DNA from: Dictyostelium discoideum
Taxonomy: Eukaryota
DNA: 64,000 nucleotides
Direction of reading: 5' to 3'
Assembly: GCA_000004695.1 (NCBI GenBank)
Contig: CM000151.3
Location: 7,072,001 to 7,136,000 of the forward strand
Below are positions 1-28,472 of this stretch, one piece after another. The translations under genes were made by a program, and so were the position numbers. Numbering within the stretch: position 1 is the stretch's first letter; each line of letters opens with the position of its first letter. The notes under the pieces were generated by a model. That model ran no database searches, was not told the DNA's origin, and was given only the letters and a program-made list of their open reading frames with translations.

Positions 1-163
1 AAAAATAAATAAAAATAAAAAAAAAAAAAATAATTAAAAATAAAAAATCTGGTAAAAAAAAAAAAACTATAAATATTTTTTTTTTTTTTTTTATATAAAG
101 CATTAAACAAATCGAAAAAAACTAAATTTTTAACTATAAAAAAAATTAAATTTAAAAAAAAAA

Positions 164-186
164 ATGTTAGCAAGTAAGTGTCTAAA

Positions 187-225
<39 letters not shown>

Positions 226-417
226 AATCTAACTTTATCCTTTTTTTAATTAGAATCATTAATCTTCTCTAAAAACTCATCAAAGGCAGACAAAATTTTT
301 TCAAATGATAAATTGACTGTTACTTCTTTTTCTTTAAATGCCACTTGCGAAAAAATTTCAGCTTCAACTACAACTTCTACCTCTATTTTTACAAGACCAA
401 ATTTCTTGAACTACTAA
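164..417 (+). CDS. micro-gene family copy A. Exon 1 at 164–173 (atgttagcaa|gtaagt), exon 2 at 254–417. Product is 57 aa: MLAKSLIFSKNSSKADKIFSNDKLTVTSFSLNATCEKISASTTTSTSIFTRPNFLNY.
   Basis: ATG plus 7 nt ends in phase 1, followed by a GTAAGT donor. An AT-rich intron ends in ...aattag, after which exon 2 stays open to TAA. The architecture and termini are shared with nine other copies. Confidence 0.55.
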
Positions 418-783
418 AAAAAATATATAAATAAACTAAATATATTGGCCGACTATAAATTTAAAATTCTAATTTTAATTGTTTGTTTGTTTTTTTTTTT
501 TAATAAATTTACCAATAATTTTATTAATTTAAATGATTTTATTAATTTAAATGATTTTCCTTTTAAAATTAAAAAAAAAACAATTTCATTTCTAATTAAT
601 TTTTTTTATTAATTTTTTTTTTTCAAACCCTCCATTACCTTTTACTAAAAAAAAAAAAAAAAAAAAATTATCTTATTTTGGTTTTAATATATGTACATGT
701 TTTTTTATTATTTATTTAAATATACAGTTTTTATATCAAGTATTTGTCGGCCTTGATATTTTATATTATTTTTTTATAAAATT

Positions 784-1031
784 TTAAAAATTTAAAAAAT
801 TTGGTCTTGTAAAAAAAGAAGTTGCGTTCTTAATTGAAACAATTTCATTTTTTGAAAAGTTATTTAAAGGTGTTTCACTATGGATACAGTTTAATGAAGA
901 TGAGTTTGTTTTGTTTGAAATTGAAATTAATGATTCTAAAATAATAATAAAAAAAAAATTAGAAATTATGTTTTGGAAAAAAGAAAAAAAATTGTTTTAA
1001 TATTCATTGCATTATACATACTTAATAACAT
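784..1031 (-). CDS. micro-gene family copy J. Exon 1 at 1031–1022 (atgttattaa|gtatgt), exon 2 at 935–784. Product: MLLKSLISISNKTNSSSLNCIHSETPLNNFSKNEIVSIKNATSFFTRPNFLNF.
   Basis: Reverse strand. Same exon and phase structure as the other copies, with the conserved exon-2 start aatcattaatttc and the C-terminus FFTRPNFLNF followed by a stop. Confidence 0.5.
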
Positions 1032-1555
1032 TTTATTATTTTTTTATATAGTTTTTTTATTTATTTCTAAATTTAGAATTTTTGTTTTATTTAAAATGAT
1101 TTTTTAATTAATAATGAATTATTTTTTTTAAACTATTTATATTTTTTTTTTTTTTTTAAGTAAAAGTATTCAAAAACCACTTTTATCTGTTAAATAATAA
1201 AATTTAAAAAATAATTGAACAGATGTTGTCGACATACACACACTCTCAATATAAAAATAGTGTTATCACAAACTTTAAAAGAAGTATGTGCGAATAGATT
1301 TTATTTAATATAGAATCATAAAACCAAAATGATATTTTTTATATATTGATTTTAAAAATAAAAAAAGCAATTTATTATTTTTAATAAATGAAGAAATAAA
1401 TTTAATTAATAAATAAATAATTTAAAAGGGTTGGTTTAAAAAATAAAATAATTATTTAATATGAACCAAAATTAAAAAATGAATTAATTTTGAATTTTTA
1501 TTGGAATAATTGAGTATACATATATTTTTAATTGAATATTAATAAAAGTGAAAAT

Positions 1556-1655
1556 NNNNNNNNNNNNNNNNNNNNNNNNNNNNNNNNNNNNNNNNNNNNN
1601 NNNNNNNNNNNNNNNNNNNNNNNNNNNNNNNNNNNNNNNNNNNNNNNNNNNNNNN
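1556..1655. other. assembly gap (100 N)
   Basis: Run of N characters; it lies inside the repetitive micro-gene cluster. Confidence 0.99.
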
Positions 1656-1789
1656 ATGTCATCATTTGTATTTTTAATTTATAGTGTCATTTTTAGATAT
1701 TCTTTTTTTTTTTTTTCAATTAAAACTGAAATTGTATGTTTATATATATCAGTGTTTTATTTGAAATAAAAAAATAATAATAATAAATG

Positions 1790-2257
1790 AAGTAAAAATA
1801 TTCAAACCACTTGTTGATGATATCCATTATTTAAGTAATCATTGTTGAAAACATATATTTGATATTGTTGTTGTCAAAAAAAAAATTAATATGATTTCAA
1901 CAAGATTAATAAAATAGTTTAAATTATATTATTATTCTTGTTGATATCATTATCCTTGTTTTTTTGTTTTTAAAAACAATTGTCTTTACTTGTATGTCAA
2001 CATAATATTTTTACAAAATTTAAACAATTAATAAAATTGTGTGTTTATTAAATAGTGGTGGTGGTAGGAAGTGGTTGGGGTGGGGTGGTGGGAAGTGGTT
2101 AAATTTTACTTAAAATAATTATTTCGATTTAAAAAATAAAATAGAATTTAAAAAAAAGTATAAATACTTTTTTTTAATTTTATTTTTTATATCAAACAAA
2201 CATTAAATTAAAAACAAAACAAAAACATTAATTAAAAACTATGAAACTATAAATAAA
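1790..2257 (+). promoter_or_regulatory. conserved promoter module of copy B: two TTGTTGATATC-type blocks (1808–1830, 1938–1950), a G-rich box (2055–2098), TATAAATA (2159–2166)
   Basis: The same elements occur in the same order upstream of copy E (5120–5583) and, mirrored, upstream of copy C (3190–3480). The G-rich box (GGTGGTGGTAGGAAGTGGTTGGGGTGGGGTGGTGGG) is highly unusual in DNA that is about 90% AT. Confidence 0.5.
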
Positions 2258-2497
2258 ATGTTATTCAGTATGTATTTTTAATAAAAAAAACAATGAAAAT
2301 ATCAATGAATATAATATTAATTTAATATTTTTTTTTTAAATTTAGAATCATTAATTTCATTATCAAATAAAAATACCACCTTAAATTCATCTTTAATTTC
2401 AAATCAAACAAACAATGATTGTAATGAATTTAAAAATGAAATTACAAACAAAAGTTCTACTGCATTCTTTACAAGACCAAACTTTGTAAACTATTAA
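2258..2497 (+). CDS. micro-gene family copy B. Exon 1 at 2258–2267 (atgttattca|gtatgt), exon 2 at 2346–2497. Product is 53 aa: MLFKSLISLSNKNTTLNSSLISNQTNNDCNEFKNEITNKSSTAFFTRPNFVNY.
   Basis: Canonical GTATGT donor, tttag acceptor, and an in-frame join. TATAAATA lies at about −99 and a G-rich box at about −200. Confidence 0.6.
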
Positions 2498-2584
2498 AAA
2501 AAAATATTATGATAAAAACAATTCCGATAAAAAACTTGTACAAACAATAAAATCTATTTATTTATTTATTTATTTATTTTAAAA

Positions 2585-2632
<48 letters not shown>

Positions 2633-2944
2633 CCTTGAGTGATTTTTAAAGTTGGTTTTAAATTAATTTTTTAAAACTATTGATTTTTTGATATTTTATC
2701 TTTATTAATATGTCTCCTTTGGATTTTATTATTTGCCCACTTTTTCATTTATAAAAGTAATTCGTTTTTTTATCAAATTTTACATAATTTTAAAATTTTT
2801 TTTTTTGTCAAACTTTTCCACAAATAAATAAAGAAAAAACAGAAAAATTATTTTTTAATTTTAAATAAATATATAAATATATTTTTTTTTTTAAATGTAC
2901 AATTTGTTTATCGGTATTAAAATTTTTTTTTTTTTTTTTTTTTT

Positions 2945-3189
2945 TTAATAGTTTATAAAGTTTGGTCTAGTAAAGAATGCAGTAGAACTTATGTTTGTAA
3001 TTTCATTTTTTAATTGATTACAATCATTGTTTGGTTGATAAGAAATTAAAGATGATTTTGAGGTGGTATTTTTATTTGATAATAAAATTAATGATTCTAA
3101 AAAAAAAAAAAAAAAATTCAAAATTAAAATCAACTTCATTATAATATATTTTTAATTATAATTTTTAAAATATACCTACTGAATAACAT
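2945..3189 (-). CDS. micro-gene family copy C. Exon 1 at 3189–3180 (atgttattca|gtaggt), exon 2 at 3096–2945. Product: MLFKSLILLSNKNTTSKSSLISYQPNNDCNQLKNEITNISSTAFFTRPNFINY.
   Basis: The ORF track (2945..3139, minus) covers exon 2. Exon 1 and its donor are found upstream on the minus strand. The promoter is a mirror image of the copy B promoter. Confidence 0.6.
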
Positions 3190-3480
3190 TTTTTATTTTT
3201 ATAGTTTTATATTTAGTTTTTTAAGATTTTATAATGTTAACTTTGTTCGATATAATAAATTAAAAAAAAAAAAAAGTATTTATACTGTTTTTTAAATCGA
3301 AATAATTAAGTAAAATTTAGATAAACACCCACAACCACCACCACTATAGCACATTTTTTTAAAAATTATGTAAAATGATTATGTTGATATACAAGTAAAC
3401 AGTAAAAAAAAAACAAGTATAATGATATCAACAAGAATAATAGTTTAATTTATTAACAACATTTTAAAAATATGTTTCCA
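3190..3480 (-). promoter_or_regulatory. conserved promoter module of copy C: TATAAATA at 3277–3286, a C-rich run on the plus strand (G-box in gene sense) at 3326–3345, ATGATATCAACAAG at 3422–3435
   Basis: It is the reverse complement of the copy B and copy E promoter architecture. Confidence 0.45.
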
Positions 3481-3705
3481 ACATCCATTTTTTTAAAAAA
3501 GGACTTAAAATTTTATTTAATTAATTAAAAAAATAATACAATAAAATTGTTTACAACAAAATTTAATTTTAATTTTTATGATTATTTAAAAAAGAAAAAA
3601 ATAAATGATAATTTGTAAAAAAAAAAATAAAAAATTAATTCTAATTATCTAGAATAATTTATTTTACAATAGTTTTTTTAATAAAAAAAGTTATTTGGTT
3701 GTTTT

Positions 3706-3745
<40 letters not shown>

Positions 3746-3948
3746 AAGCTAAATTGAATTATTTATTTAAAAACCTTTTTTGAACTAATTATAATAATAA
3801 AAATCAAAATAGCTAAACTATTTCACTCAAAAAAAAAAAAAAATGAAAATAATTTTTAAATTTTTTAAATAAATAAATAAATAGTTTTTTATTTGTACAA
3901 GTTTTTGTCGGCAATATAATTTTTTCAATAATTTTTTTAATAGTTTAC

Positions 3949-4085
3949 AAAGTTTGGTCTTGTAAAAAATGCAGTAGAACTTTTACTTGCAATTTCATTT
4001 TTGAATTCAATGCAATTATTATTTAATTGATTTGAAATTAATGATTTTGAGGTGGTGTTGTTATTTGATAATGAAATTAATGATT
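3949..4085 (-). CDS. micro-gene family copy D (partial). Exon 2 at 4085–3949 encodes ...SLISLSNNNTTSKSLISNQLNNNCIEFKNEIASKSSTAFFTRPNFVNY. Exon 1 is lost in the N gap.
   Basis: The exon-2 acceptor (ttag|aatcattaatttc) and the conserved C-terminus are present. Upstream sequence is the gap at 4130–4219. Confidence 0.45.
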
Positions 4086-4129
4086 CTAATAAATAAAAAA
4101 AAAAAAAAAAATAAGTATANNNNNNNNNN

Positions 4130-4219
4130 NNNNNNNNNNNNNNNNNNNNNNNNNNNNNNNNNNNNNNNNNNNNNNNNNNNNNNNNNNNNNNNNNNNNNNN
4201 NNNNNNNNNNNNNNNNNNN
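4130..4219. other. assembly gap (90 N)
   Basis: Run of N. The predicted exon 1 and promoter of micro-gene copy D would fall inside this gap. Confidence 0.99.
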
Positions 4220-5119
4220 ATAAATCATTTTATTTCATATTTATGTTTAAAATATGTACATGAAATCACAATAAACAAAACAACACCTATGTTTAATGAT
4301 TGTTTAAAAATTGTTGATTTAAGAAATGATTTGTATTGATTCTAATAAATTAAAATTTTAACCACAAAATAAAATCCTACCACAATTTATTCTTCCATTC
4401 CTTCTACTATACCCTAACCTATTTAATTATATATTCTAGAATTTGAATTTATTGTAAAATAGTGTTTATACTCCACCAACAAAAAGGATTTAAAAACTAT
4501 TTTAAAAATCATAAAGCTTTAAAACAAAATGTTTGAAATTATTATTTTAAAAGGTTTGGAAAAAAAAGAAAAGAAAAGAAAAAAGAAAATGATATTATTT
4601 ATTAAAAAGAAAAAAACAAAAAAACAAAAAAAGAAACAAACTAAATCAAAATAAACCAATTTAGAATATAATTAATTTCTTGTTTTTCTTTTTTTTTTCC
4701 AAACTTTTAAATTTAGAAAATAATTGATTTCTTGTTTTTCTTTTTTTTTTTAGAATCGCTGGTGTATTTATTTTTTTAATTATTTTATTTTTTGATTTTG
4801 TTTTAATTTATTTCTCTTTAATTTTACTTTTTTTTCGAGTTGCTGATAGCTATGCTATTTATTTTTATTTTATTTTACTTTTACCATTTCTCTTTTATTT
4901 TGTTCTTTTTTTTTTTTAATGAATTTTTTTTTTTTCATTGTTTTAAAAACTTTTAAAAATGAAAAAAAGTATAGGAAAAATGAGAATCATAAAAAACAGG
5001 ATGATGAATAAGTTTTGATCACTTATATTTTTTAAAATATAGTGCATTTTTACATGACATATTATTATATTTTTTAAATTTGAATTGAAAAATTATATAA
5101 ATGAAGAAAAAAAATGAAA

Positions 5120-5583
5120 ATTAATTAATGATGATATCAATTTTAAAACAATGATTGTTGAAAACATACAATATTTATGATTTTTATATGGTAGTTGAAG
5201 AAAATTATTGATTAAAAAAATTATTATCTATTAATAAAAAGGTTTTAAATTATATTATTATTCTTGTTGATATCATTTTGCTTGGCTTAATTTTATATTA
5301 ACATTTAACTTTACTTGTATGTCAACATAATATTTTTACAAATTTTAATTTATTTAATTTATTAAATAATTGTGTGTTTATTAAGTAGTGGTGGAGGGGG
5401 GTGGGTGGTTGTGAGTGTGTGATTAAATTAATTATAACTAAAAATTATTTCGATTTTAAAATTAAAAAAAAAAACAGTATAAATACTTTTTTTAATTTTA
5501 ATTTTTTATATCAAACAAAAATCATTAATTAAAAACTAAAGTTAAATAAATTAAAAACTATAAAAAAAAAATATATTTATAAA
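5120..5583 (+). promoter_or_regulatory. conserved promoter module of copy E: TTGTTGATATCAT at 5275–5287, G-rich box at 5387–5424, TATAAATA at 5479–5486
   Basis: It aligns with 1790–2257. The G-box variant is GTGGTGGAGGGGGGGTGGGTGGTTGTGAGTGTGTG. Confidence 0.5.
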
Positions 5584-5839
5584 ATGTTATTCAGTATGTA
5601 TTTTTTTTTTTATTTTTTTATTAGAATTATTTTTTAAAAATATCAATGAATTTAATATTAATTTAATATTTTTTTTTTTAAATTTAGAATCATTAATTTC
5701 ATTATCAAATAAAAATACCACCTTAAATTCATCTTTAATTTCAAATCAAACAAACAATGATTGTAATGAATTTAAAAATGAAATTACAAACAAAAGTTCT
5801 ACTGCATTCTTTACAAGACCAAACTTTGTAAACTATTAA
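5584..5839 (+). CDS. micro-gene family copy E. Exon 1 at 5584–5593, exon 2 at 5688–5839. The coding sequence is identical to copy B.
   Basis: Exon 2 matches B over all 152 nt. About 460 bp of upstream sequence is also highly similar to B (5120–5583 versus 1790–2257), which points to a recent duplication about 3.34 kb away. Confidence 0.6.
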
Positions 5840-6493
5840 AAAAAAAAATAATATGATATAAACAATGCCGATAAAAAACTTGTATATTTAATAAAAAAAA
5901 TTAATTATTTATTTATTTATTTATTTAAAAATAAAACCAAATTTTTTATTTTTTTATTTTTTTTTTTTTATTTTTTTTTTTATTTTTTTGAACATTTTCT
6001 ATCCTGACCCTGCAAATATAGCACCAAAAAAAAAAATTTAATTCAAAAAAAATAAATTTAAATAAAATTAAATGTTTTTTGAACTTCGTTTTTTTTTTTA
6101 TTTTATATAAATTTTTTTTTTTTTTGGGTACTTTTGTTCACTTTTTTCTTTTTATTTTTATACTTAAAATCTTTCAAAAAAAAAAGAAAAAACAAAAATT
6201 GATCAAATAATGAACTTAATATATTTCTTACCAAAAAATAAATAATAATAATAATAATAACGATAAAAATAATACTCAGTTCTTATTTTACATATGTAAC
6301 CTTTTTATTTTTTTAGATAATTTGTCATAATTATTATTTTTATTATTATTATTTAAAGTTTAAAAAAAAAAAAAGAAAAAAAAAAAAAATTTTAGTTTTT
6401 TTAATTAAGTTTTGTTTATTAATTTTAATTTATTTTACAAGTAAAGTTCGGCCATGTAAATTTATATATATATATAAAGTTTTTCGTTTTTTT

Positions 6494-6736
6494 TTAATAA
6501 TTTACAAAATTTGGTCTTGTGAAAAAGGCAGTTGGACTCTTCATTGTAATAGAATTATTTGTAGTACTAATTGAATTTATATTATTAGATTCAATTGAAC
6601 TTGATAATGATGATGAATTTTTGTTTGATAATGAAAGTAAAGATTCTATTTAAAAAAAAAAAAGTAAATTAATTAATACAATGACTTTAAAAATTTTTTT
6701 TTTTTTTTTTTTTTTTTTCAACTTACTGAATAACAT
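6494..6736 (-). CDS. micro-gene family copy F. Exon 1 at 6736–6727 (atgttattca|gtaagt), exon 2 at 6645–6494. Product: MLFKSLLSLSNKNSSSLSSSIESNNINSISTTNNSITMKSPTAFFTRPNFVNY.
   Basis: Reverse strand, same architecture. The promoter has TATAAATA at about −100, a G-run, and the GATGTTGTCGACATACA element. Confidence 0.55.
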
Positions 6737-6925
6737 TTTAAATTATAGTATATTAATATAGTTTTTATATTTGTTTTTTTATTTATTTAATTAATAAAAT
6801 TTTTTTTTAATGATTAAAATAATTTTTTTTTTTTTTATTTATACTTTTTTTTTTATTTTTAGTTTAAACATTTAATATAACCCCCAAAAAACCACTTAAT
6901 AACACTAATAACAAATTTGTAAAAT

Positions 6926-6946
6926 AGATGTTGTCGACATACATGT
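6926..6946. promoter_or_regulatory. conserved element GATGTTGTCGACATACA(T/C), followed by a CA run, about 190 bp upstream of minus-strand copy F. An identical element lies at 1218–1240, about 190 bp upstream of copy J.
   Basis: Two copies of an exact 17-mer containing a GTCGAC core, each flanked by (CA)n or ACACAC. Both sit at the same distance from the ATG of a minus-strand micro-gene. Confidence 0.4.
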
Positions 6947-7601
6947 GTTTTAAAAATTAAAAGGTTTTTTTGATAAACACACACACATTAAAAGAAGAGA
7001 TTTTATTATTTTAATTAAAAGATAATTTTAAAAAATGTAGATATGGTATCAACATCATTTTCTTTTTGACAAAAATAAAAATAATTATTTTAAATTTTAA
7101 TTTTTAATGATTATATAATTATTTACCCGCTCATTGATCACTATTTTTTTCCAAATAATTGTTATCATCATTTTTAAAATCAATTTTCTTCTTTTATAAG
7201 TTTTTTATTTTATTTTTATAATAATTTTAATTTTCTTAAGGAGTATTAATATGGATATAATAACAATATAATTGATTTTTAAAGTAAATCAAGTAAAATA
7301 AAAATAACAAAATTTCTTCATTTACTTTATTTATTTTAAAAATAAAAAGGTTTTTTATTTAATTTTAAAAAATTATAACATCATCCTTTTTTAAAATAAA
7401 AGAAGATAAAAATGATGAAATTATTTTATTATTTTTTACTTAATGATGTATTATCTTAGGGGACATCAAATTGAGAAAAAAAAAAAAAAATTATTTAAAT
7501 TAAAAATTTTATTCTTTTTTTTTTTTTTTTTTTTTTCTTTCCTTAAATTTATATAAAAACTTAAAAACTAGAACTTCTAAAAATAAATAAAAGAAATTAA
7601 A

Positions 7602-7843
7602 ATGCTATTTGGTATGTTAAAATTAATTTTATATAATTGGTTGATATTTATTTATTAATATTTTAAATTTTAGAATCAATTAAATTAAACATAAAAATAA
7701 ATAATTCTTTAAATGAATGTTCAAATTTATTAATTAGTGAAAATAATAAACATTCATTATATATTAATTCATTAAATACAATTACAACTAGAAATCAAAC
7801 TAGTAGCTTTTTTTTTTCTAGACCAAATTTCCAATGTTTTTAA
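7602..7843 (+). CDS. micro-gene family copy G (divergent). Exon 1 at 7602–7611 (atgctatttg|gtatgt), exon 2 at 7674–7843. Product is 60 aa: MLFESIKLNIKINNSLNECSNLLISENNKHSLYINSLNTITTRNQTSSFFFSRPNFQCF.
   Basis: Same exon and phase structure. The C-terminal motif is the variant FFFSRPNFQCF. Confidence 0.5.
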
Positions 7844-8309
7844 AAATAGATAACTAATTGTTAATTTACATTAAGAATAATTGTTCGAATAACTCAATAT
7901 TTAATTATTATTATGAATTAAATCATTTTTAATTTTAGAAAAAATAATAATTTATAAAAAAAATAGTAAAAATAAAAAATAAATTATTATTATTAAATTT
8001 CCAAAATCATACTTCATTTTTTTGATAATAACAATAATAATTATTTTGACAAAAAAAAAAAAAAAAAAATTGATAATTATTTCTTTTTGATAAACAAAAA
8101 TTAAAGTTGATATCAATAAATTTATTAGCCGGACAATTATTCAATATATTTTAAAAAATCAAATATCTAAAATATAAATCTTGATTTTAATAAATGTTGA
8201 TATCATACATATTATTTCTGCTTCTCATATAAATTTAAAAATAGCAACATATTCAATTTACAAATATATTTTATTTTTCAATCTATAGATTTATCAATTT
8301 TTTATTTTT

Positions 8310-8349
<40 letters not shown>

Positions 8350-8606
8350 ACCCATAGTAAAGAAGGGGTCAATTTTTAATTATCAAGTTATACGATTATT
8401 TCTATTTTAATTTTTATTTTATTTTTATTTTTATTTATTATTTTACTTTAATCAAAAAAAAAAAAAAAAAAAAAGTAAATATAAATAGTATTTTTTTTTT
8501 TTAAAAAAATAAATACTTAAAAATAAATCACAAATCAAAACATTAATTAATATAAATTATTAAAAAAAAAAAAAGAAAAATATTAAAAAAATAAATATAT
8601 TTTAAA

Positions 8607-8847
8607 ATGTTATTCAGTATGTATTTTAAATTAATTTTATTTCATTGTAAATTATAAATAATAAATATTAATTATTTTTATTTTTTTTTTTAAAATAGAA
8701 TCATTAATTTCATTATCAAACAATGTTTCAAAAGTTTCAACATTAATTTCAGTTGAAAACAATGAAAATTCTATAAATACTACAACAAATACTATAACAT
8801 TAAGAAGCACAGTCTTCTTTACAAGACCAAATTTTATTAATTATTAA
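8607..8847 (+). CDS. micro-gene family copy H. Exon 1 at 8607–8616, exon 2 at 8699–8847. Product: MLFKSLISLSNNVSKVSTLISVENNENSINTTTNTITLRSTVFFTRPNFINY.
   Basis: Exon 1 is atgttattca|gtatgt, the acceptor is aaaatag, and the conserved termini are present. Confidence 0.55.
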
Positions 8848-9016
8848 TTAAAAAAATAATTTATATATAAAAACAAAACATGGCCGAAATTTACATGTTT
8901 TAAAAAAAGTTAACGAAATAAAATCCTTTTGATTATAAAAAAAAAAATAAAAAAAAAAATTATATGTTTTCTTTGTATTTTTATTTTTTATTTTTTATTT
9001 TATTATTTTATTATTT

Positions 9017-12000
9017 TTAACTATCTTTTTTAAAAGTTAAAAATTTTTCAAAAGAAAATTTGTTTGTACCAAATATTGATAATAAAACTGGTAATAAGAC
9101 TAAACCATGAACAGCTGCTAATAAACAAATACTTATATACATTTTGAAATAGTATATGATAAAGATTTCTGATTTTGAAAAAGCTAAAACTACACAACCT
9201 AAAAGTTTTGTGATAAAGATACCACTAAATATGTTTGCACCCATTTCTGATATTGCAAATTTAACCTTTTCATCTCTTGAATAATGTTTTGGTGATCTGA
9301 TGAATGTACTTGCAATATGAACGCAAAATTCTATTGATATACCAACAGCCATAATTAAATTTACGACAGAGATTGCATTCAAAGATATATCCCATAATGT
9401 CATGACGGCCAAAAGGTCAACAACCGTCATACCAACACAAAGTACAACCAATATTGAAACCAATGGATTCATTAATATAGCTAGTGATACGAAAAATACA
9501 CTTCCCAATGCCAATAAAATACCTTTTAATGCCACTTGTTTTATGGTTAAATAAGCTTCAAAGTAACAATAGAAAATACTATAAGTGAAAACTTGAGCAT
9601 CTGAATGGTCAGCCAAATAATAACTTGTGGCAAGTGCATTGATGAAATCATTTTGAGTTCTTAGAGTTGTATGATAAGCATCGAAACGAGTTGCTGCAAT
9701 ACTACCATCACTATTGAATTTTACATCACCAGTATATGCTAAACCTGCCAATGGACATTGATCTGTATTTGTGAAATTTAAAAATGCAGGTAAATACTTT
9801 TTAAATAGTGATGGATCGGGTCTACCAGATTTTTCCAATGGGAAACATTGTTGATCACAACCAGGTTCATCACTATTACAATAGGTACCATTATCGAATG
9901 CTGTACAACAACCGACAGTATTACTCCATTGTAACATATCATCTAACCATGATGAAATTCCAGGTGAAATGAATGGTGCATTATCAAATGTATTTATAAC
10001 TGAATTATTATTACAACCACCTACTGTACAAAATTGATTTTGAATTGATGGTATGGAGAAATCATAATTTCCTTTTACAACTATATACATTGGTGGTCCA
10101 ACCTCTAAGAATTGATTCATATTTGTGAAATAAGCTTGAAGATAAGAGTTTCTTGGTAGTGCAACCTTTTGATCTAAACCAATTGGAATTTGATATGCAT
10201 AATTTATTGAAAACAATAACATTGCAATAAAGAATATTATAATTAATAATTTTGAAATTGGATGAACTAAAAATGGAGCATAATATTTTGTAAATAATTC
10301 CTTTAATAATGTTGTTTTCTTTTTTGATTTCTTTTTTAACATTCTCTTTTTTGATAATGGTGATGATTCTTCATTATTAATATTTAAACCATCAACAACA
10401 TTTAATGCATCAACATCATAATTAAAATTATGAGCATTATCATTTCTATCATCATCTTCACCATTAATTAAAAGTGGTTCATTTTCAATTTCTTCTTGAT
10501 TATTATTATTATTGTTATCATTGTTATTAAGATTATTATTATTATTATTATTATTACTATTTAATTGTTGATCAATATTATCAAATGGATCATCTTCTAA
10601 ATCTGAATTATCACCATTTAATGATAAGCATGGTAAACAATCAACTCTTCTTGATTGTAAACGTTTTGTATCTAAAACTAATAAACAAGCGAATGCACTA
10701 ATTTGTAATAGGAAGTCAAAGAAAACTGCAATTGAAGCATAGAATGAAAATGCTTTTACTGCTGGCATTTTAGTTAAGGAACCTAATAGGAAAGCAAATG
10801 ATTCACTTAATGATGCTAATGCAATTGATGGACCAACCTTTGCAAGTGTACGAGCAAATGATTCTTCTGGTGTTGGCATTTGATGATGATTTTGATTAAA
10901 ACCACTAATTGATGATGATGATGATGATGATGCAACATGTAAAGATTCAAAAGTATTTACTAAAATGAATATATTATCAACACCAATGGCTAACACTAAG
11001 AATGGTATAACTTCACTAATGATTAGAGTTGCTTTTATACGTAGAATTGAACAAATACCAACAGAGATTATAATTGAACATGCAACTATACAAATACCAG
11101 ATAGACCCAATGCAAATCTTGAACGAATGAAAAATGAATTGAATCTTCTTGGAAATGGGTAATAACTACCTAAACTAAGGGAGATATATAAAAACATAAC
11201 GAAATAACTAACGATAATCGTTGGTATATCTGCATTACCTTCTCTTGCCAATTCATCTTGTACTGATCTTTGAGCATTGAATGATATTTCGAATGGACAT
11301 GAAGGATCATTTGAAATCTCTTGAATTTTATTTAACCAAACTTGTTCCCACATCATTGATCTATCAATCATTGAATCTGGATTATTCAATAGGAAAGTGG
11401 TGACAAATGCTTTTGCCAACGTTGAATTATCATTCCAACCACCCAATACTATCTTTGGATTTACAGGTACACCAGTTGAATCCATACATTCTGGTGAAAG
11501 TAATTGTGATTTACATTGTTCAAACCAACCAATTACATTATCCTTTTGTTGATTTAATTTATTTTGATCACGTTGAAAAATACCTGTTATACTCTCAACC
11601 AAACAACCACGTTTAGTAGGTTCAAAACATAATTGATCCAATGTTATAATCCTATTTGAACCATCATTAAGCTTTACACTTGTATTCTTCATTAGTTGTG
11701 TCTCTATATCAATTAATGATTTAAATAAATCATAATTGAAAATCGTTGATAAATTCTTTTGTTTTGGTATTAAAATTAATTGTTCAACACGATAGAATGG
11801 ACCGAAATGATCATCGAAATATTGTTTCTCAATTGCTGATCTACTATCTGGTGATACCCATAATTTTACTGGATCAGTTTCAATCTCTAATGAAATAATA
11901 CCAATACCAATACCAATTGTAAATAGTAAACAACATATTAAAACTATTATTGGTCTTTTTGTAATATTAATTCCATACCAATAAAATACTTTTTGAAAAA

Positions 12001-13437: not shown

Positions 13438-14305
13438 ATTGAATGAATTTTATTTTTATTTTATTATTTTAAAATTATTATTATTATTCTATTTCATTAA
13501 AATAAAAATTTATTTTTTATATTTTTTTTTTTTTTTTTATTTTTTATTTTATTTTTTTTTTTAGTGTGTGTGATTGGCAATTATTATTTATTTATTTTTT
13601 TCAACCTACAAAAAAAATTAATTATTGAAGGTATTGAAATTTTATTATAATAAATGAATTGGAACACTAGGATGTAATAATTGGTAAATAAAAAATAAAA
13701 AAAAAAATAAAAAAATTAATATAATAAATAAAAAAAAAAATAAAAAAAAAAAATAAAAAAAAAAAAAAATAAAAAAAACCAATATTATTTGAACAACCCC
13801 ACAACACACAAAAATTTTGCATTAAACAACGGGTGTTTATTTTTAGTAATAATAAAAAAAATAATAAAAAAAATTAAAAAAATTAAAAAAAAAAAAATAT
13901 TTCTATATATATTTTCAATCATTTGAAATATATTGAATTCATCCTAATTTGATTATTATTTAAATCATGTCCGAAATATAGACATATGGTATTTGGAATA
14001 ATGGTTTTTTTTTTTTTTTTTTTTTTTGAGATATTTTGATTATAATATAAAAAAAAAAAAGTGAAGTTTCAAAAAAAAGATTTTTTGTTGGCTTGGAGAG
14101 ATTGAAAAAAAAAAAAGAAGATTTTTTTTTTTTTAAGAAATAATTTTTTAAGAAATAATTTTTTCATTAGAAAAAGAATTAATTAAAAAAAATTGGAAAC
14201 AGAGATAAATTCTGAATACTAATACTAATATTTTCAATATTTAAGAATCTAAATTTGGATTTGATTTTTTTATTTTTGAAAAGTTTTGTTTTTATTTTCT
14301 AGCCG

Positions 14306-27559: not shown

Positions 27560-28435
27560 ATCTGATTCCATGGCATAAAATGTGGTGATATTTCTGGTAA
27601 GGTATGTAAAAAGAATCCAAATCTTAAATATGATTCTACACTTATTAAGTTGTCCAAGGAAACAGTATTCAACTTGGAATGTGGAAACCAGGAACATTTG
27701 GTGTTTGGGGTGAAATGTATTCTGTTATTCTCAAAAAAGAAGACTGGGCAGCACATCATCACCTTAGAAATGTTTACTTTTTCTTTGATAATGATGGTGA
27801 TAAATATTGAAATGATGCTAATAGATTAGATTTTTTAGATATGACTTAAATCTAAACTTCTAAATCAAACTTTTAAAAATAAATTTAATTTTACTTTTAT
27901 ATTCTTGAGTCTATCAATTCGAGAGGATATTTTTTTTTTATTTTTTAAAAGTTTAAAAATTTTGGTCCTGAAAAAGTGATTTTCTTTAAAAAATACAATT
28001 CCATTATAATTTGAATAATTAAATCAATTTTTAATTGACTAACCACCACCCGAATATTAAAATCATTTATTAAGATCCAATTCTTAAATTTGATACTCAA
28101 ATTGTAAAGTAACAGTATTCAACTAGGGATGTGGAAACCAGGAATATTTGGTGTTTGGGGTGAGATGTTCTCATAAAAGAAGACTGGGCATCTCGACACA
28201 ATCGTGTAAATTTTTACTTTTTCTTTGATAATGATGGTGATAATTATTTCAATTTAGATGCTAACAGATTGGAGTTTAACTTTCAATCAAACATCATCAT
28301 CAAACATATTTAAAAAAAAATTATGGAATAAATTTAATTGTTTAAATTAATTTTTATCAATTTATATATATTTATATTTTTTATTTGATTTTTATATTTA
28401 ATTTTATATTATTAAGTCGACCAATTCGAGAGGAT

Positions 28436-28472
<37 letters not shown>

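Follow-up and report, generated by a model that had tools for sequence, protein, structure and literature searches.

The subject of this report is a short sequence element found in a 64,000-nucleotide stretch of chromosome 2 of Dictyostelium discoideum AX4 (GenBank assembly GCA_000004695.1, contig CM000151.3, positions 7,072,001 to 7,136,000 of the forward strand; hereafter, the window), where a cluster of very small genes, here called micro-genes, carries the word NCGA, mostly (G)GCCGA, a short distance after the stop codon. The element is strand-specific and family-specific, it is under constraint, and it stands just before the poly(A) signal. Judged from comparisons of sequence, this GCCGA element is most likely a previously unreported conserved cis-element of 3' untranslated regions (3'-UTRs) serving family-specific control of the mRNA; its presence in the mature mRNA, its binding by a protein, and its regulatory effect are what we infer from these comparisons.

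In the window, the motif lies on the sense strand in 11/11 copies of the gene, with its CG located 24–46 nt past the stop codon, which bears out the observation of an initial annotation of this DNA that a CG-core motif follows the stop shortly in every copy. Family-wide, in D. discoideum strains, D. citrinum, and D. firmibasis, the motif is present in 53/53 copies, with the CGA always on the sense strand and never inverted, although these copies are paralogues and the counts are not independent events. The logo anchored on CGA (n = 53) reads G39 - R(G/A)43 - C39 - C - G - A - [C32, A13, T8], with a G never found as the following base, and leads to the consensus G-R-C-C-G-A-[C/A/T]; the variants found in the subfamilies are GGCCGA(A/C), TGCCGAT, GGGACCGACC, TTGGGCGACTT, GGTCGAC, and TTCGAA.

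The motif is specific to the family and is not a general feature of 3' flanks. All the CCGA tetramers found on both strands of positions 1–9000 of the window (8/8) are family motifs in sense orientation. The window and the related loci add up to 198 kb; in the AT-rich DNA of this set, CCGA occurs 37 times in the 5,830 nt that make up the 3' flanks of the family and 22 times in the 164,640 nt outside of them, a density about 47-fold higher for the family. In addition, a CG at +16..65 was found in 0/23 AT-rich flanks downstream of other open reading frames (ORFs) of the window, a control that is rough because some of these ORF ends may be internal exons, and that goes against the motif being equally frequent in random flanks. 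Regarding a possible complementary partner, UCGG, every TCGG in positions 1–9000 of the window is the minus-strand copy of the motif itself. The base composition is less extreme than first described: the family 3' flanks are 83–94% AT (mean 86%) instead of about 95%, and the CG dinucleotide, reported as extremely rare, is counted 29 times in 8.8 kb, with an observed/expected ratio of ~0.6 that indicates a mild depletion.

The distance of the motif to the poly(A) signal varies less than its distance to the stop codon. Across the family, the next downstream AATAAA follows the motif at 20.7 ± 7.1 nt, while the motif follows the stop at 45.6 ± 19.5 nt (range 21–87), and the idea of a fixed distance after the stop has to be abandoned. 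This variable distance is largely due to the A-runs found after the stop: they directly follow it in all copies and measure 0–29 nt, as exemplified by those at 28437–28464 and 2923–2944, both on the minus strand. The hexamer AATAAA is found at +10..40 of the motif in 42/53 copies, compared with 28% in shuffles, a position that supports the 3'-UTR placement offered by the initial annotation as one of its explanations. In 18/53 copies, of the B-E and F types, UGUA occurs between the motif and AATAAA, 6–13 nt past the motif; the A', A, G, and I types lack it, and it is not the feature that the family has in common.

The constraint on the element emerges from trios of orthologues of D. discoideum, D. 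citrinum, and D. firmibasis, in which the 28-column element was compared with the rest of the 3' flank and with the intron. In subfamily H, 79% of the element is invariant, against 26% of the rest of the flank and 49% of the intron; the corresponding values are 89, 29, and 43% for subfamily F, and 79, 41, and 30% for subfamily A'. The contrast between element and flank is weaker in subfamilies E (61% for the element, 55% for the flank, and 50% for the intron), G (43 and 31% for element and flank), and A (46 and 22%). Between subfamilies, the flanks are unalignable save at the motif, which is kept in about ten subfamilies whose flanks and introns otherwise do not align, and the D. purpureum member has the CGA-containing GCCCATCGATCGAGCTTGTAAATAAA in its 3' flank, ~65 nt past the stop. 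Conversely, a truncated and dead copy of the window has lost the core, with GGTCGAC now reading GATAGAC. The B-E copies are near-identical across 60 nt of flank. The invariance of the element relative to its flank in the trios, the unalignable flanks of the subfamilies, and the loss of the core in the dead copy make a very recent common origin, the other explanation first proposed, insufficient on its own.

Part of these elements can fold. The cttgta/catgt words noticed initially next to several motifs are real, and in some subfamilies these flanking words, cttgta/catg, form the 3' arm of an inverted repeat, namely a hairpin. This short hairpin has the motif at the 5' side of its loop in subfamilies A', F, and H, while subfamily B-E has a vestigial hairpin, and in the remaining subfamilies the motif is predicted to lie in unstructured A-rich RNA. 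When the 53 copies were folded under constraint at 22 °C and compared with shuffles of their flanks, a clear stability was found only for the A' and H types, with F being marginal. For this reason, a universal hairpin was dropped as the common feature, because most copies have no stable fold and structure is not a general requirement. The primary sequence of the motif is what the whole family has in common, and the hairpin is a presentation of it at the level of the subfamily.

In the alignment of 20 cluster copies, 75.6% of the cells of the 8-pair stem are paired, compared with 34–46% in slid registers and with 0/500 shuffles reaching this value, and the pairing of the inner five pairs rises to 87%. 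At two positions the subfamilies alternate between AU and UA: for pair 8-30, 13 copies have AU, 5 have UA, and 1 has UG, and for pair 11-27, 12 have AU and 3 have UA. Among the cells of the inner pairs, four are U.G and none is A.C, which favors pairing of the sense strand. A covariance model of the hairpin, run over the 198 kb, retrieved only its own 20 training elements and no orphan element, and an Rfam scan of positions 1–9000 with a permissive E-value found nothing at the elements.

Taken together, we tentatively favor, with a confidence that stops somewhat short of even, the reading of the motif as a family-specific cis-element of the 3'-UTR that a sequence-specific protein reads on the RNA, with the family behaving as a regulon. 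The motif would be transcribed into the family mRNAs, of ~300 nt, after the stop and a variable A-rich spacer and ~20 nt before UGUA/AAUAAA; a sequence-specific RNA-binding protein would then read it in single-stranded form and, with the whole family as its single regulon, would act on stability, on translation, or on the efficiency with which the 3' end is used. Several points weigh against this reading. That the motif is probably inside the mRNA is judged only from where it stands with respect to AATAAA; in subfamily A, this hexamer is found 13–21 nt before the motif and none is close after it, and there the motif could be at or past the cleavage site. The constant orientation could have been inherited via duplication, and it is thus compatible with a role at the DNA level. 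Of the window copies, the other seven (A, B, C, D, E, G, and I) have no stable fold, while the covariation comes down to about two compensatory events that are independent, in sequences related to each other, which is suggestive and not conclusive. Finally, no match to the element was found among known motifs of RNA-binding proteins.

One alternative is that the motif is a family-specific upstream auxiliary element of polyadenylation which, with the adjoining UGUA, helps the cleavage machinery to choose the correct AAUAAA; such help could matter where chance gives rise to AAUAAA-like hexamers, and also where transcription units are very short. This seems unlikely to us, even though the distance to AATAAA (standard deviation, SD, 7.1) is tighter than that to the stop (SD 19.5), UGUA follows the motif by 6–13 nt in the 18 copies mentioned above, CGAGCUUGUAAAUAAA is kept in D. 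purpureum, and in other eukaryotes UGUA acts as an upstream auxiliary element 20–50 nt before the cleavage site (PMC11529991). The tighter spacing may reflect only the instability of the A-runs of 0–29 nt that follow the stop; none of the 23 other flanks of the window has a CG there, and a processing factor of general use could do without the motif; a GC-rich upstream element would be atypical; and in subfamily A the motif comes after the nearest AATAAA. Doubtful to a similar degree is a site acting at the DNA level, bound by a transcription factor, a terminator or roadblock, or a boundary protein, at the 3' end of gene units that are clustered and often convergent, and affecting their transcription. 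G-R-CCGAC is indeed a compact GC-containing word of the type read by DNA-binding proteins, conserved CGA blocks such as GATGTTGTCGACATACA and TTATTTCGATTT also occur ~200 nt before the start codons, and duplicated units would show a constant orientation anyway. Nevertheless, both arms of the stem change between subfamilies (CAAG/CUUG versus CAUG/CAUG, and the fifth pair U-A versus A-U), and such two-sided changes fit base pairing better than the recognition of half-sites; moreover, the inner stem contains U.G and no A.C cells, and 0/53 copies are inverted.

A third option, which we regard as improbable, is that the motif has no function and is a relic, being either a decaying tandem duplicate of the last 25–30 nt of the coding sequence (CDS) or a word shared only through recent duplication and gene conversion. 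The near-identity of the B-E copies over 60 nt of flank fits recent duplication, and the element does resemble the coding end: in copy F, TTTACAtGgCCgAACTTT matches the coding-end TTTACAaGaCCaAACTTT at 15/18 positions (p ~0.001 against GC-matched AT-rich windows), and the likeness is weaker, though still of nominal significance, in the L003-type, A', and H copies (p 0.01–0.03), while it is absent in B-E, G, and I; this likeness was noticed post hoc, among copies that are not independent of each other. However, a relic accounts poorly for a motif that is kept in about ten subfamilies with unalignable flanks and as a CGA motif in D. purpureum, for the 79–89% invariance of the element in H, F, and A' compared with 26–41% in the neighboring sequence, for a GC-rich word held in DNA that is 86% AT, and for the loss of the motif in the sole dead copy. 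An origin by duplication is, besides, compatible with a later function.

The likeness to the coding end suggests that the element may have originated by tandem duplication of the gene 3' end, and it has a further version to which we assign only a slight probability: the element would be an exapted tandem duplicate of the last ~30 nt of the CDS, yielding a stop-spanning switch that couples termination on tiny ORFs to the accessibility of the 3'-UTR or the fate of the mRNA. The coding end, UUUACAAG-ACCAAAC-UUUGUAAA, is itself a small hairpin in the copies ending in ...FVNY. Under this hypothesis, two A-to-G changes (AGACCAA to GGCCGAA) would have made the conserved loop word, and the 3' arm CUUGUA(AA) would pair either with the 5' arm of the element or with the coding-end UUUACAAG. 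As for the positions involved, on the minus strand TTTACATGGCCGAACTTT at 6442–6468 matches TTTACAAGACCAAACTTT at 6494–6523 with the same 15/18 score, a similar likeness is seen at 729–762 (minus) and 8872–8905 (plus), and CTTGTAAA, the 3' arm, complements the coding word TTTACAAG exactly.

The micro-gene element that we favor as a 3'-UTR cis-element recalls some known systems and differs from each of them in some respects. The histone mRNA 3' stem-loop (RF00032), bound by SLBP, is likewise a family-specific short hairpin located tens of nucleotides past the stop of small, multi-copy, coexpressed genes. It has, however, a GC-rich stem of 6 bp and a loop of 4 nt, whereas the micro-gene element has an AU-rich stem of 5–8 bp and an 11-nt loop starting with GCCGA, and it is then followed by AAUAAA, so that polyadenylation is not replaced, unlike in the histone case. 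The RF00032 model (gathering score 34 bits) matched no element in positions 1–9000, its sole hit there being at 6958–7003, in a promoter region, with 18.1 bits and E = 0.58.

Other systems, which are protein-binding hairpins of 3'-UTRs, present a fixed loop word on a variable, covarying short stem, as the hairpin subfamilies do. The recognition element of Smaug/Vts1 has the loop CNGG, while the yeast She2p zipcode has two loops separated by a helix of 4–5 bp, one with a CGA triplet and the other with a conserved C; She2p is not known outside fungi. The micro-gene loops read GCCGA(A/C)NNUUA and do not contain CNGG. With the She2p elements they have an invariant CGA in common, present in 53/53 copies, but a single hairpin loop is predicted with no second loop, and most micro-gene copies lack a stable stem altogether, which sets them apart from both systems. 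As for the PUF-binding element (UGUANAUA or its UGUA core), UGUA is found in 18/53 copies and is not what the family has in common. UGUA is also the upstream auxiliary element of CFIm-type polyadenylation, 20–50 nt before the cleavage site in other eukaryotes (PMC11529991). The motif lies 10–40 nt before AAUAAA, and the UGUA adjoining it in those 18 copies would have a fitting position; the CG core itself is not UGUA. Yet the known upstream poly(A) elements are U-rich or consist of UGUA, which CFIm binds, and operate genome-wide, whereas the micro-gene core is GC-rich and belongs to one gene family.

Regarding the genes that host the element, both their exon/intron layout and their C-terminal signature are those of the DDB_G0276707-like micro-gene family of Dictyostelium. 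A first-exon ORF of 10 nt, ATGTTATTCA, is followed by an intron of 69–86 nt and by a second exon ending with F-[TS]-R-P-N-F-x-x-[YF]-stop, and the encoded proteins have 49–60 amino acids (about 53 codons). In D. discoideum, profile searches found at least 35 annotated members, every one labeled as hypothetical, and the relatives they found elsewhere belong only to D. citrinum, D. firmibasis, and D. purpureum. Among the loci related to the window are the clusters orthologous to its own in D. citrinum (L001) and in D. firmibasis (L002), along with D. discoideum strain clusters (L003 and L006), further D. firmibasis loci (L007 and L009), the Logan contig L004, and the D. purpureum member (L008). 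No assembled cDNA was found among the cluster members looked up, and the Logan contigs L004 and L005 are unspliced. The literature offered no paper on the family except one that names two members, solely for their promoter G-quadruplexes, and searches for Dictyostelium 3'-UTR or poly(A) elements, as well as for the gene identifiers, returned nothing relevant.

The micro-genes resemble the sigN and hssA-2C-7E families, which are also clustered Dictyostelium genes coding for very small proteins, in which a minute ORF in the first exon precedes a single short intron and the second exon (PMC2257962). In these families the first-exon ORF has 13 nt, and the proteins are Gly/Ser/Cys-rich and have 87–89 amino acids (PMC2257962), whereas in the micro-genes this ORF has 10 nt; in addition, the sigN and hssA-2C-7E proteins lack the FTRPNF end. 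Membership of the host genes in sigN/hssA was rejected on the basis of the different first-exon ORF, 13 versus 10 nt, and of the unlike proteins. The paper that describes these families gives no 3' element (PMC2257962).

A search of the window with the C-terminal coding word identified ten complete copies and a truncated one, with sites at 388, 2468, 5810, 7814, and 8818 on the plus strand and at 813, 2974, 3966, 6523, and 28494 on the minus strand, plus a fragment at 27974 on the latter. The nine copies listed by the initial annotation were all confirmed, whereas a complete copy at 784–1031 and the truncated one at 27974, both on the minus strand, had escaped it, and some of its motif coordinates needed revision. 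Micro-gene A (DDB_G0276637; 164–417, plus strand) consists of exon 1 ATGTTAGCAA, the intron, and an exon 2 ending with FTRPNFLNY*; its motif ttGGCCGActataaa, placed before at 436–447, is found at 445–459 (plus), with the CG at +33 from the stop and no stable hairpin. The unlisted complete copy is micro-gene A' (DDB_G0276635), with the CG at +35, and its element at 729–762 (minus) forms the 8-bp hairpin AUAUCAAG-GCCGACAAAUA-CUUGAUAU, the most stable of all copies, with −7.4 kcal/mol at 37 °C and a z-score of −6.1.

Four copies compose the B-E group. Micro-gene B (DDB_G0276613; 2258–2497, plus) carries the element acaatTCCGAtaaaaaaCTTGTAcaaacAATAAA at 2512–2546 (plus), with the CG at +28 and an unstable stem of 4 bp at most (ACAA/UUGU). 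Micro-gene C (2945–3189, minus) has lost the stem of its element aatACCGAtaaacaaATTGTAcattt, located at 2892–2926 (minus) with the CG at +32. Micro-gene D (3937–4119, minus) has the element attGCCGAcaaaaaCTTGTAcAAATAAAA at 3890–3923 (minus), with the CG at +27, and its exon 1 is unseen because exon 2 enters an assembly gap. Indeed, two runs of 100 N interrupt the cluster, at 1556–1655 and 4120–4219, and copy D loses its exon 1 and its intron to the latter. Micro-gene E (DDB_G0276707; 5584–5839, plus) encodes the same protein as copy B, 100% identical to both DDB_G0276707 and DDB_G0276613, and its element acaatGCCGAtaaaaaaCTTGTAtatttAATAAA is at 5856–5890 (plus), with the CG at +30.

As for the other copies, micro-gene F (DDB_G0276651; 6494–6736, minus) is followed by UUUACAUG-GCCGAACUUUA-CUUGUAAA and then AUAAA at 6430–6463 (minus), a weak hairpin of −2.8 kcal/mol with a conserved U.U mismatch and the CG at +44; its motif, first assigned to 6431–6448, is at 6442–6455. 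Micro-gene G (DDB_G0276653; 7602–7843, plus), with the C-terminus FSRPNFQCF*, has the TCGA variant ttgTTCGAAtaac at 7881–7893 (plus), with the CG at +43, where its D. firmibasis orthologue reads TTCCGAC. Micro-gene H (DDB_G0276655; 8607–8847, plus) has its element at 8872–8905 (plus), with the CG at +38 and the hairpin AAAACAUG-GCCGAAAUUUA-CAUGUUUU of −6.4 kcal/mol and z-score −2.4. Micro-gene I (DDB_G0276669; 28465–28695, minus) does have a motif close to the interval proposed for it, ~28405–28425, with corrected coordinates of 28414–28430 (minus); the sequence there, cTCGAAttgGTCGACtt, contains both motif types adjacent to each other, with CG at +37/+46. Lastly, the truncated I-type copy (27906–27974, minus) retains the last ~30 nt of the coding end (27945–27974) and the 3' flank; there, the GGTCGAC has become GATAGAC while CTCGAATTG is retained, with the CG at +24.

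A second and weaker motif, (A/T)CGAA(A/T), joins the first in several subfamilies, including the copies of L003 and L006. In copy H it reads ttaaCGAAATAAAa at 8910–8922 (plus), adjoins AATAAA, and is kept in the D. citrinum and D. firmibasis orthologues; this direct adjacency to AATAAA (ACGAAATAAAA) is common to H and a divergent member from D. firmibasis (L009, ~10285–10300). The second motif reads GTTCGAATCA in one copy only, and GAACGAAT, GTACGAAT, or GCTCGAGT elsewhere. Its identification with the B box of a tRNA gene or with an extra TFIIIC site (GGTTCGANNCC, with invariant T54, T55, C56, and A58) was rejected because the TT positions are unconserved.

Other blocks of sequence accompany the cluster. 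Past AATAAA, the B-E subfamily has ATTTA repeats (CTATTTATTTATTTATTTA) at 2554–2580 (plus), 5905–5927 (plus), and 3866–3884 (minus), a run resembling an AU-rich element that is kept in D. citrinum and D. firmibasis. On the promoter side, G-rich tracts are found ~170–200 nt before the start codons of B, E, and C, at 2055–2100 (plus), 5386–5421 (plus), and 3325–3345 (minus), respectively, and two of them are the published G-quadruplex-forming promoter sequences p12 and p14 (PMC6511855); the published G-quadruplex coordinates put the first nucleotide of the window close to chr2:7,072,003. The promoter CG blocks, which make up much of the remaining CG in positions 1–9000, are of two kinds: GATGTTGTCGACATACA, ~200 nt before A' and F (1222–1240 and 6927–6945), and TTATTTCGATTT, before B, E, and C (2117–2130, 5443–5456, and 3290–3303); the first kind of block has lost its CG in B and E, where it is GTCAAC. 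An isolated CCGA in AT-rich intergenic DNA (13960–13990, plus), with no adjoining family gene and missed by the covariance model, comes with the small inverted repeat ATGTC-CGAAATATA-GACAT. In L003, the promoter block TGTATCATACTTCCCGAATAAAAT holds a sense CCGA at 1165, 3817, 9736, 13181, and 16765 of the plus strand, ~430–520 nt before the C-terminal coding word of each copy.

Collectively, these results describe a well-supported new motif with a predicted regulatory role, and not a new biological principle. Little was found on cis-elements of Dictyostelium 3'-UTRs, and as short GC-containing words stand out readily from DNA that is ~86% AT, the approach could be extended genome-wide. The host family is lineage-restricted, highly amplified, and unstudied, and a family-wide 3'-UTR element gives it a concrete experimental handle. 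If this assignment is true, it would predict a dedicated RNA-binding factor and the coordinated post-transcriptional control of very small mRNAs in Dictyostelium development.

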